IMG/VR virus record: IMGVR_UViG_2563366930_000006
Location: 1 to 39,600 of that record
Direction: 5' to 3' (one strand)
Source: a virus
Lineage: Duplodnaviria; Heunggongvirae; Uroviricota; Caudoviricetes
DNA length: 39,600 nt
Shown here: positions 20,971-22,919 of the stretch, piece after piece
Layout: the number at the start of each line of letters is the position of its first letter
How positions within the stretch are numbered: position 1 is the first letter of the stretch
Notes under the pieces: generated by a model
Told to the model about the DNA's origin: nothing
What the model saw: the letters and a program-made list of their open reading frames with translations, nothing else
Database searches by the model: none
Made by a program: the position numbers and the translations under genes

Positions 20971-21504
20971 ATGAGTTTAGAAAAATTACTAATCAAAAAC
21001 AGAAAGTGCGGTTCATGCTCTGTGTGCTGCACTTCGCTACGAATTGAACAGCCAACGTTAAAAAAGTTGGCTGACATCCCATGCCAGCACCTTAAACATC
21101 AGGGAGGATGTGCAATTTATGATGAACGCCCTTCTGTTTGCCGCACTTGGTATTGCGGATGGCGAATTCTGGATATAGGACCAGAGATGCGTCCTGATCG
21201 GAGTGGAGTTCTAATCCGTTATGATGGATCATCACTCTGCTTTCAACCCGTAGACAAAAACCGCGTATCTGCTTTGATCGAACCAGAGCCTCTGCGAATT
21301 TTGGGTGGCCTGATAGATCAAGGTATGAAAGTGGAAATATCGGTTCCAACAAAGGAAGGGTATTGCTCAGCCAATATTAATGTCACTGAGCATATGTCAG
21401 AGGTTGTAAAAAGCAGAGAGTATGTAAAAATGCGTTCGGCTCTTTTGGCGCTCATTCAATTCGCATCACGAGCAAAGACAGATCCAGTAGAACCGCTGGA
21501 ATGA
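20971..21504 (+). CDS. YkgJ-family CxxCxxCC cysteine-cluster protein (putative Zn/Fe-binding), moron on the strand opposite the late operon
   Basis: CGSCSVCC ... CQHLKHQGGCAIYDERPSVCRTWYC fits the CxxCxxCC domain pattern; GGGAGA RBS before ATG at 20971. Confidence 0.65.
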   Translation: MSLEKLLIKNRKCGSCSVCCTSLRIEQPTLKKLADIPCQHLKHQGGCAIYDERPSVCRTWYCGWRILDIGPEMRPDRSGVLIRYDGSSLCFQPVDKNRVSALIEPEPLRILGGLIDQGMKVEISVPTKEGYCSANINVTEHMSEVVKSREYVKMRSALLALIQFASRAKTDPVEPLE

Positions 21505-21512
21505 TTATTCAG

Positions 21513-21536
21513 GTCGGGTTTAACACCCGGCTTTTT
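21513..21536 (+). terminator. Intrinsic terminator after the YkgJ-like gene
   Basis: 7-bp stem GUCGGGU/ACCCGGC then CUUUUU. Confidence 0.55.
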
Positions 21537-21779
21537 GAAATGGTACTCATTGCATCGCTTAATTTTCTTTAAATGAGAAACGTCCTCTTTCTTAACTGAA
21601 GACATTAATTCTTTATCAGTTCGAACATTCATTTTTTTCCATTGCATGATCTTCGCTAATTTATAATTTGCAGTTCTCCTGCAACGATTTGTTATGTGAT
21701 AGGATATCTCTCTTCGTTTGGCGGTCCATTACTTCAATATCGTGATCATTAAGGTATAGGCTTTGTAATGCCTACATGG

Positions 21780-22259
21780 TTAAATGATTTGCCAGTCTTC
21801 AGCCATCAGGTCGCCAATGGATGGAGCCCATGTAGCAAGGCGGTTCTGTGAGTTTTTCAATACAAGCGTGTCATTGAAAGTTGGCTCGCCAACATATTCG
21901 CCAAAGCCATAACCCAACGCAGACGCTAATTTTTCTCCTTTCACGAGATAAACAAACTGATCTTTCCCATTCCATCCTGCCCGCTGCAAACTTTTGCCCT
22001 GTTTTAACGCTTCCATGGCAAGGCCGAAACTTAGCCCTGATACCGGACGATAAGCCTTTTCGAATACTTCTTTTGGACTCCAGCTAACGTAGCCATCAAA
22101 GCGATCGGTGTTAGGTTTTCCGCCATCCAGATATTCAACCAGATAGCCTTCGTCCTCGCCGTTTTCTCCGGCAGGAAGCTGCCAGCCACGAAAATCGTTA
22201 TATGCCTGTCTCGTCATCGGAAAGGCGTTAATCAGTTTTACGCCAATATGCTGGGTCAT
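21780..22259 (-). CDS. DUF2829-like (Tad2-like) protein with an N-terminal extension of about 75 aa
   Basis: C-terminal half LAMEALKQGKSLQRAGWNGKDQFVYL ... ATWAPSIGDLMAEDWQII matches the DUF2829 pattern; ATG at 22259 favoured, the upstream in-frame start would be TTG. Confidence 0.5.
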   Translation of the reverse strand: MTQHIGVKLINAFPMTRQAYNDFRGWQLPAGENGEDEGYLVEYLDGGKPNTDRFDGYVSWSPKEVFEKAYRPVSGLSFGLAMEALKQGKSLQRAGWNGKDQFVYLVKGEKLASALGYGFGEYVGEPTFNDTLVLKNSQNRLATWAPSIGDLMAEDWQII

Positions 22260-22283
22260 AAAATTACCTATGGAGTTGGGAAT

Positions 22284-22306
22284 AAAAAAACCCCGCGAAT
22301 GCGAGG
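22284..22306 (-). terminator. Intrinsic terminator between Rz and the DUF2829-like gene
   Basis: Minus strand CCUCGC-AUUC-GCGGGG then UUUUUUU. Confidence 0.5.
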
Positions 22307-22481
22307 CTAAATCCTGGTGTTTGTGATGACTGGCTCTTATCTCAACGCAGCCCCTTACCGCGCGCCAGATGCTCAATATCAAGCATCAGCAATGAGATGT
22401 TTAATCTGGATTCACTCCAGAAGTGATCACCACCCTGTCTACAGAGCCAGATGTGAAGGATGATGAGTAAAATTATCGTTA

Positions 22482-22919
22482 TCATCGAAGGCATTGCGCC
22501 CTGATGTACTCCTGCAGGTAGTTAACCTGCGCGGTTATTCTGTCGATTCCACTTCGTAGACGGTAATAATTGAGTTCAGCATCTGCTGTAAGTCTTGGGC
22601 TTTCTCCATCGCCCATGCTGCTGGCTCCGGTCGTTGACTTTGCACAGGTGGCAGCGACTTGCAGGCGCTTACGACCAGCAGAAATATCAGCACGGAGACT
22701 TTCGATAGTCGCGTTAGCATCAGCAAGCTCCTTTGTATATCTGGCATCGAGTTCTGCTACATCACGTTGACGCTTCTGCATATCAGCGATTGTGGATGTG
22801 GCCTTATCGCGCTGCTCTTTGTAGGTAATGGCGTTATCACGGTAATGATTAACAGCCCATGACAGACAGACGATGATGCAGATAACCAGAGCGGAGATAA
22901 TCGCGGTTAACCTGCTCAT
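22482..22919 (-). CDS. Rz: Rz i-spanin
   Basis: N-terminal TM helix [20 protein letters not shown] then coiled-coil periplasmic domain; downstream of the endolysin. Confidence 0.8.
22535..22720 (-). CDS. Rz1: Rz1 o-spanin lipoprotein, embedded in Rz in another frame
   Basis: Signal peptide with lipobox LLVVSAC then proline-rich [15 protein letters not shown]; start may be 22747 or 22720. Confidence 0.6.

Follow-up and report, generated by a model that had tools for sequence, protein, structure and literature searches.

A probable two-domain anti-defence protein of a P22-like prophage combines a Tad2-family sponge with a recurrent N-terminal module

The DNA analysed here is a stretch of 39,600 nucleotides (nt) from a member of the Caudoviricetes (IMG/VR record IMGVR_UViG_2563366930_000006, positions 1 to 39,600), hereafter called the window, which is a P22-like (Lederbergvirus-type) Escherichia coli prophage. 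On its minus strand, the genes of the antiterminator Q, the holin, the lysozyme and the spanin Rz are followed by an open reading frame (ORF) of 50 amino acids (aa), a hairpin, a gene for a protein of 159 aa, a 63-aa ORF, the genes of the small and large terminase subunits and the portal gene; a YkgJ-like gene on the opposite strand separates the 63-aa ORF from the terminase genes. We focused on the gene for the 159-aa protein (Table 1), whose product is probably a late-expressed, two-domain phage anti-defence protein consisting of a Tad2-family sponge and a separate N-terminal module. As a sponge it is an ordinary member of its family; the part worth testing is the attached module.

A sequence-only reading of this DNA had taken the protein for a candidate immune-signal sponge of the DUF2829 (Tad2) family with an extra N-terminal domain, and profile, sequence and fold all support this view. 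The Pfam profile of the family (PF11195) aligns to aa 77–159 along positions 2–73 of its 73 (E = 1.4e-21), and the score of 77.2 bits, against a cutoff of 25, makes the hidden Markov model match to DUF2829 a significant one. The best matches among the sequences of the PDB are to Tad2 of phage SPO1 (8sme/8wje; E ~1e-25, aa 75–159), followed by Tad2 of Myroides odoratus (ModTad2; E ~1e-18), while SptTad2 and AcrIIA7/HgmTad2 are far weaker. An ungapped alignment gives 40 identities to SPO1 Tad2 in 85 positions (47%). The full-length protein was also modelled as a single chain with AlphaFold2 (AF2) from an alignment of 58 homologs, yielding a mean predicted local distance difference test (pLDDT) score of 90. 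The model displays the N-terminal helix, the antiparallel β-sheet and the short loop helices of the Tad2 fold, and its C-terminal domain superposes on SPO1 Tad2 in complex with glycocyclic ADP-ribose (gcADPR) (8smf/8wje, Foldseek; target template modelling (TM) score 0.8–0.92, E down to 3e-8). By every feature tested, the C-terminal domain is a member of the Tad2 family.

The residues lining the main ligand pocket are likewise preserved. As described in the structural paper, SPO1 Tad2 is a homotetramer with two pockets located between non-dimeric protomers, in which gcADPR is held mainly by van der Waals contacts of W25 and W73 and by polar contacts of N26 and D79, while S76, D67 and H71 bind waters and the adenine is touched by I63, T65 and T78. 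Residue numbers in our protein are higher by 71, so that W25, N26, W73, S76 and D79 correspond to W96, N97, W144, S147 and D150 of the present protein, and each of these five positions is kept in at least 45 of 47 two-domain homologs. The insertion between strands β2 and β3 is also of the SPO1 type, having the same length (24 aa) and a similar sequence (LASALGYGFGEYVGEPTF here, LASDFGFGFGEYINEPVF in SPO1). In HgmTad2 the insertion at this place is 41 aa long and provides a second pocket, which binds cGG and 3'3'-cGAMP; neither nucleotide was bound by SPO1 Tad2. Because the insertion found here is of the short SPO1 type, judged by sequence, and SPO1 Tad2 did not bind these nucleotides, the second cyclic-dinucleotide pocket of HgmTad2 is not expected in this protein.

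The N-terminal extension of about 75 aa, left unexplained by the sequence-only reading, is a real domain that folds confidently by itself. Modelled alone with AF2, the N-domain (aa 1–74) adopts a small α/β unit with a pLDDT of 94.5; residues 1–9 form a strand in the full-length model and are unstructured in the model of the isolated domain. Pfam and NCBIfam scans of the N-domain gave no match. On the other hand, a search with an N-domain profile against 1.84 billion cluster representatives (E ≤ 0.001) retrieved 2,710 representative clusters, an independent occurrence that identifies the N-terminal part as a separate module. The associations of this module were analysed in a set of 147 proteins, consisting of the best 143 of the 2,710 profile matches plus four added sequences. 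About 26 of its 74 positions are at least 90% conserved in this set, a level exceeding that of the accompanying sponge domains. These positions include K8, R17, Y20, R24, W26, Y39, Y43, Y57, W60 and P62, and many of the conserved residues are aromatic or charged.

In the same set, the Pfam partners of the N-domain are Tad2 (46 proteins), Sequestin (PF21825; 41) and Acb4 (PF13876; 16). An Acb2/Tad1 hairpin, a WDGH domain and a ryanodine receptor (RyR) repeat were found once each, the last in the added sequence of CB1 gp68. As to position, 115 of the proteins carry the module at the N-terminus, 13 at the C-terminus and 12 internally, and 7 consist of it alone; a word-index search showed that standalone N-domain proteins of 73–86 aa are common. 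One standalone gene lies on a T7-like contig among genes of nucleotide metabolism, a context that is uninformative, while another, in Erwinia phage phiEaP8, directly adjoins the gene of the virion RNA polymerase. As to individual homologs, P0074 and P0097 have a further N-terminal extension of 70–120 aa before the N-domain, and P0065, in which the N-domain is joined to a truncated Tad2 domain and part of a P22-type portal, has the look of a prophage gene that was rearranged or has decayed.

The closest link to a characterised protein leads to RyR Tad, i.e., gp68 of Pectobacterium phage vB_PatP_CB1, described in a 2026 preprint on N4-like phages. The N-domain profile matches residues 5–69 of gp68 with 32–34 bits (E ~1e-6 with the search space set to 1e6), and in a Foldseek search the N-domain model matches an RyR protein of Yersinia phage TG1 (query TM score 0.61). 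According to the preprint, the crystal of RyR Tad is a domain-swapped dimer, the C-terminal RyR-like domain binds gcADPR, the fragment 1–86 is inactive against type I Thoeris, and the function of the N-domain is unknown; the preprint lists Tad3 among the known inhibitors and still calls the fold of the N-domain unknown. Our literature search, which included peptide motifs of the N-domain and the combination of gp49 with Tad2, did not find the two-domain architecture or the breadth of its partnerships described. The N-domain may, however, correspond to one of Tad3–Tad8.

Three other identities of the N-domain were considered and rejected. By eye, its GW and SWSP/WAPS motifs resemble those of Tad2, as if it were a diverged duplicate of that domain; hhalign assigns this relationship a probability of 0.4%. 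An identity with Acb4 was prompted by the title of the Pfam family PF13876, "N4 Gp49/Sf6 gene 66", which is a trap of gene numbering, PF13876 matching neither the N-domain nor N4 gp49. Indeed, the match of this family in the N4 genome (EF056009) is gp48 (E = 9e-35) and not gp49 (L008 2609–2980 and 2980–3462, respectively). Finally, Sequestin is all-helical and the N-domain is α/β; PF21825 does not match it and is found in other proteins as a distinct partner domain at the C-terminus.

The coordinates of the gene, its domains and the neighbouring features are collected in Table 1.

Table 1. Features of the 159-aa gene and of the DNA upstream of it, in window coordinates.
Feature	Coordinates	Strand	Basis or remark
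Coding sequence, 159 aa (N-domain and Tad2-like domain)	21780..22259	-	ORF list; stop codon 21780-21782
N-terminal module, small alpha/beta domain (aa 1-75)	22035..22259	-	AF2, profile search
Tad2-like domain (DUF2829, PF11195; aa 77-159)	21783..22031	-	Pfam, PDB sequence search, fold
Shine-Dalgarno-like AGGT	22266..22269	-	Read from sequence; last G of AGG 7 nt 5' of the ATG
Intrinsic-terminator-like hairpin and U tract	22281..22308	-	Terminator scan, folding energy, conservation
ORF of 50 aa between Rz and the terminator	22342..22494	-	Hypothetical protein in RefSeq, Kapi1 (Kapi1_042) and Huey
Rz-type spanin gene, last of the lysis cassette	22482..22919	-	RefSeq 'lysis protein'; 'Rz spanin' in Kapi1

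The extent of the gene is well defined. The 159-aa coding sequence has a full-length match to phrog_872 (E = 1.7e-68) and coincides with the RefSeq protein WP_001525210.1 ("DUF2829 domain-containing protein"), which has the same coordinates and the same start codon, the ATG at 22259; this ATG is also the aligned N-terminal methionine of full-length homologs. A longer ORF starting at the TTG at 22382 was rejected, as it would cross the terminator hairpin and is unsupported by the homologs. In the E. coli genomes carrying WP_001525210.1, the DNA between 21600 and 22500 of the window is 100% identical. The allele is uncommon in this species, the N-domain DNA being present in 45 of 5,426 complete genomes and the C-domain variant in 37.

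The hairpin preceding the gene (22308–22289) consists of an 8-pair stem and a 4-nt loop and is accompanied by a tract of 7 U (22290–22284). Its folding energy of -13.3 kcal/mol gives z = -2.8 in comparison with shuffled sequences, and the end of the U tract is separated by 24 nt from the ATG. The hairpin is kept in the phages Kapi1 and Huey, and the records of epsilon34 and Ayreon have a "terminator" feature under the corresponding match. These data bear out the intrinsic terminator that had been noticed about 25 nt before the gene; on the other hand, the hairpin does not directly follow Rz, as had been stated, since the 50-aa ORF intervenes. This ORF is conserved, its start overlaps the end of Rz and its Kapi1 ortholog (Kapi1_042) has a predicted signal peptide in the Kapi1 record; a Pfam scan of it gave no match. 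Downstream, the YkgJ/CxxCxxCC-type gene (20971–21504, plus strand) is antisense within the late unit, convergent and overlapping with the 63-aa ORF (21456–21647, minus strand), and a hairpin at 21483–21500 has a terminator-like score on both strands.

A relaxed scan of the 440 nt upstream of the gene found no convincing σ70-like promoter, the best candidate matching 8 of 12 positions. In lambdoid phages, late transcription starts at PR' and is made terminator-resistant by Q. Given this property of Q and the lack of a visible promoter upstream, readthrough dependent on Q is the simplest model for the expression of the gene and, by analogy, a plausible one for a lambdoid late operon.

Taken together, these elements suggest the following course of events. 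Since the gene belongs to the late transcription unit, between the lysis cassette and the terminase genes, its late transcription would probably be due to a polymerase modified by Q that passes the upstream terminator. By analogy with SPO1 Tad2, the C-terminal domains (aa 77–159) would assemble into a homotetramer, whose two inter-protomer pockets would bind and sequester ADP-ribose-derived signals produced by defence proteins with a TIR (Toll/interleukin-1 receptor) domain. Most likely, the ligand would be the type I Thoeris signal 1''-3' gcADPR (3'cADPR), and its sequestration would leave the effector ThsA inactive, allowing the phage to replicate. The N-domain, a separate module that is attached to several unrelated sponge domains and is also encoded alone, would probably form a strand-swapped dimer, by homology with the N-domain of RyR Tad.

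A number of observations weigh against parts of this proposal. First, five secondary pocket residues differ from those of SPO1 Tad2 (I63L, T65N, D67Q, H71A and T78G, corresponding here to L134, N136, Q138, A142 and G149). Because these residues touch the adenine or coordinate waters in SPO1 Tad2, the preferred ligand could be another derivative of ADP-ribose (ADPR). Secondly, since the N-domain of gp68 is degenerate and lacks the RGW motif and the DGGKPN loop, its dimeric structure and its inactivity may not transfer to the present protein. Thirdly, in the RNA sequencing (RNA-seq) of Kapi1 reported in the 2026 paper, Kapi1_043, the ortholog of our gene, has the highest expression of all Kapi1 genes in lysogen cultures, whichever of the two media was used, and this is not the obvious behaviour of a late gene that depends purely on Q. 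Finally, our literature search found no experiment on this protein or on any protein combining the N-domain with Tad2.

With respect to the first of these points, the secondary pocket positions vary across the family and are relevant to ligand preference rather than to membership. Other Tad2 homologs have been reported in recent work to bind His-ADPR, N7-cADPR, or cCMP/cUMP. Among the 47 two-domain homologs, the adenine-side positions 136, 138 and 149 fall into two sub-variants, T/D/T as in SPO1 (approximately 24 of 47) and N/Q/G as in this gene (approximately 14 of 47), which may have different ligand preferences.

The role of the N-domain can be viewed in two ways. One is that the N-domain is itself an anti-defence effector, acting either as one more sponge, for a different immune signal, or by binding a defence protein, so that the protein would block two signals or two steps. 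We advance this idea tentatively and regard it as rather unlikely. The N-domain is fused to four Pfam-defined sponge families and, as a divergent copy, to a fifth in RyR Tad; this repeated fusion favours a second ligand-binding role, and the characterised Acb4-Tad2 and Acb4-Sequestin fusions offer a precedent. Indeed, according to a 2025 preprint, sponge domains are often fused to each other, and Sequestin was itself discovered through its fusion partnership in a search that covered Pfam families only and would therefore miss the N-domain. The domain is also encoded alone, as proteins of 73–86 aa, and in N4, as in phiEaP8, it adjoins the gene of the virion RNA polymerase, an interval described as an anti-signalling hotspot of N4-like phages. 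The strict conservation of aromatic and charged positions reported above points in the same direction. Against a second ligand-binding role speaks the inactivity of the divergent homolog gp68_N (residues 1–86) towards type I Thoeris, for which RyR Tad's C-terminal domain by itself is sufficient; moreover, the N-domain has no known ligand or partner. Carried to its full extent, the same idea makes the N-domain an unrecognised anti-defence domain that phages combine with Tad2, Sequestin, Acb4, Acb2/Tad1-type and RyR sponges and also deploy alone, this protein and N4 gp49 being two-target inhibitors, a generalisation to which we likewise give less than an even chance.

The other way is to consider the N-domain a pure scaffold, which dimerises by strand swap and raises the valency, stability or solubility of the sponge, with no ligand or target of its own. 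Also this explanation is possible but doubtful. In the crystal of RyR Tad both domains take part in dimerisation and the N-domain swaps strand β1, and gp68_N failed to counteract Thoeris. The N-terminal placement of the module in 115 of the 147 proteins, whatever the partner, fits a scaffold as well, as does the strand that residues 1–9 form only in the full-length model. Nevertheless, Tad2, Acb4 and Sequestin oligomerise without an N-domain; in lytic phages the N-domain is encoded alone with no sponge gene adjoining; and the strict conservation of polar and aromatic residues of surface type would be unusual for a mere oligomerisation tag.

A further alternative concerns the timing of expression rather than the biochemistry of the protein. 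The gene could be a lysogenic-conversion moron, transcribed on its own in the lysogen and serving the prophage-carrying cell, for instance by pre-empting Thoeris-type abortive responses on induction or by helping related superinfecting phages. The leading position of Kapi1_043 in the lysogen cultures under all conditions of the RNA-seq results cited above speaks for it, considering that the N-domain of Kapi1 is 100% identical and the upstream DNA 97% identical, and the terminator lying upstream would keep the gene insulated from the lysis cassette. However, the 440 nt upstream hold no σ70-like promoter better than 8 of 12, and only 24 nt are left between the U tract and the ATG. Furthermore, a moron has its own promoter on the 5' side and a terminator on the 3' side, and the terminator was found here upstream of the gene, not downstream. 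In the same Kapi1 data, the transcripts of the capsid and scaffold genes likewise rank among the highest, a lytic signal that the authors attribute to spontaneous induction in part of the population. The Kapi1 RNA-seq therefore neither proves nor excludes an independent promoter, and on balance we find a moron improbable and retain Q-dependent late expression as the simplest model.

Inhibition of Cas9 in the manner of AcrIIA7, a DUF2829 protein from gut metagenomes, is very improbable: homologs in the phages Huey and Louie are annotated "anti-CRISPR protein" and there are weak sequence matches to AcrIIA7 (8kbi, E = 8e-6; 9kzr, E = 3e-5) over about 35 residues only, but the similarity of the present protein to SPO1 Tad2 is much greater than that to AcrIIA7. 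Moreover, a follow-up study could not reproduce the inhibition of Cas9, either with AcrIIA7/HgmTad2 or with other homologs of Tad2, and identified AcrIIA7/HgmTad2 as a sponge for gcADPR and cyclic dinucleotides; those who discovered Tad2 also argue that DUF2829 proteins counter Thoeris and not CRISPR.

The interest of the two-domain protein lies accordingly in its N-terminal half. Sponges of the Tad2 family are an established route by which phages counter Thoeris and related signalling defences, and one more member is to be expected. The N-terminal module, on the other hand, is very conserved, has no Pfam model and precedes several unrelated sponge families, so that the logic of fusion which led to Sequestin applies to it as well. 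If the module turns out to have its own ligand or target, one more widespread anti-defence family would be recognised, and well-known orphan genes, N4 gp49 among them, would acquire a function; if strand-swapped dimerisation is all that it does, it would illustrate how sponge valency is tuned in phages.

Compared with known systems, the C-terminal domain resembles most closely SPO1 Tad2 (Gp34.65; 8SME/8SMF/8SMG/8WJE), with which it shares the Pfam family, the short β2–β3 insertion, the fold and the main pocket residues. SPO1 Tad2 is a single domain of 89 aa from a Bacillus phage, whereas the present protein adds the 74-aa N-terminal module and comes from a temperate phage of a Gram-negative host. 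HgmTad2/AcrIIA7 (PDB 8KBI–8KBM) has the DUF2829 fold and the conserved gcADPR site in common with it.

The identical two-domain architecture is found in N4 gp49 (EF056009, 34003–34485; 160 aa), which was retrieved by tblastn of phage genomes. It matches the N-domain profile with 103 bits and PF11195 with E = 8e-24, and is located in an accessory region, adjoining gp48, the Acb4 gene. It differs from our protein in that the overall identity is approximately 48%, the β2–β3 insertion is another one and the phage is lytic and N4-like; our literature search found no functional study of it.

The nearest relatives by position are Kapi1_043 of phage vB_EcoP_Kapi1 and CDS0064 of phage Huey, both P22-like, which occupy the same site after Rz, the small ORF and the terminator. 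The N-domain of Huey is 96% identical. In both proteins (173 and 166 aa, respectively) the β2–β3 insertion and the β3–β4 region are replaced by unrelated sequence. The Tad2 domain is thus a mosaic: Kapi1 (L003 2522–3043) and Huey (L001 997–1497) keep the N-domain and helix α1, while their central segments, corresponding to window positions 21840–21960 (aa ~100–140), are unrelated and of different length, a pattern that points to exchange of the variable part of the sponge as a cassette. The gene is already annotated as DUF2829 in RefSeq, and a Tad2-like nature had already been proposed for its Kapi1 ortholog in the 2026 paper, whose passages on the gene do not mention the N-terminal domain. 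In Huey, the gap between lysis and terminase genes holds, together with the N-domain-Tad2 gene, an Acb4 gene (CDS0066, 382–762; PF13876, E = 3e-35), both annotated "anti-CRISPR protein". In P22-like phages, anti-signalling genes seem to accumulate in this interval (21456–22494 in the window).

At a greater distance, the N-domain of RyR Tad is a divergent member of the same module and is likewise N-terminal to a gcADPR-binding sponge; it differs by the absence of the RGW motif and of the DGGKPN loop, and its sponge has the ryanodine-receptor-repeat fold instead of that of Tad2. The crAssphage protein KP06_gp41 combines the N-domain with Acb4. Finally, the described sponge-sponge fusions, namely Acb4-Tad2 of Pasteurella phage Pm86, Tad2-Sequestin and the Acb4-Sequestin protein Ab09 gp59, likewise unite a sponge and a second small domain in one short protein; unlike in these fusions, the partner of the Tad2-family sponge described here is neither Acb4 (PF13876) nor Sequestin (PF21825).

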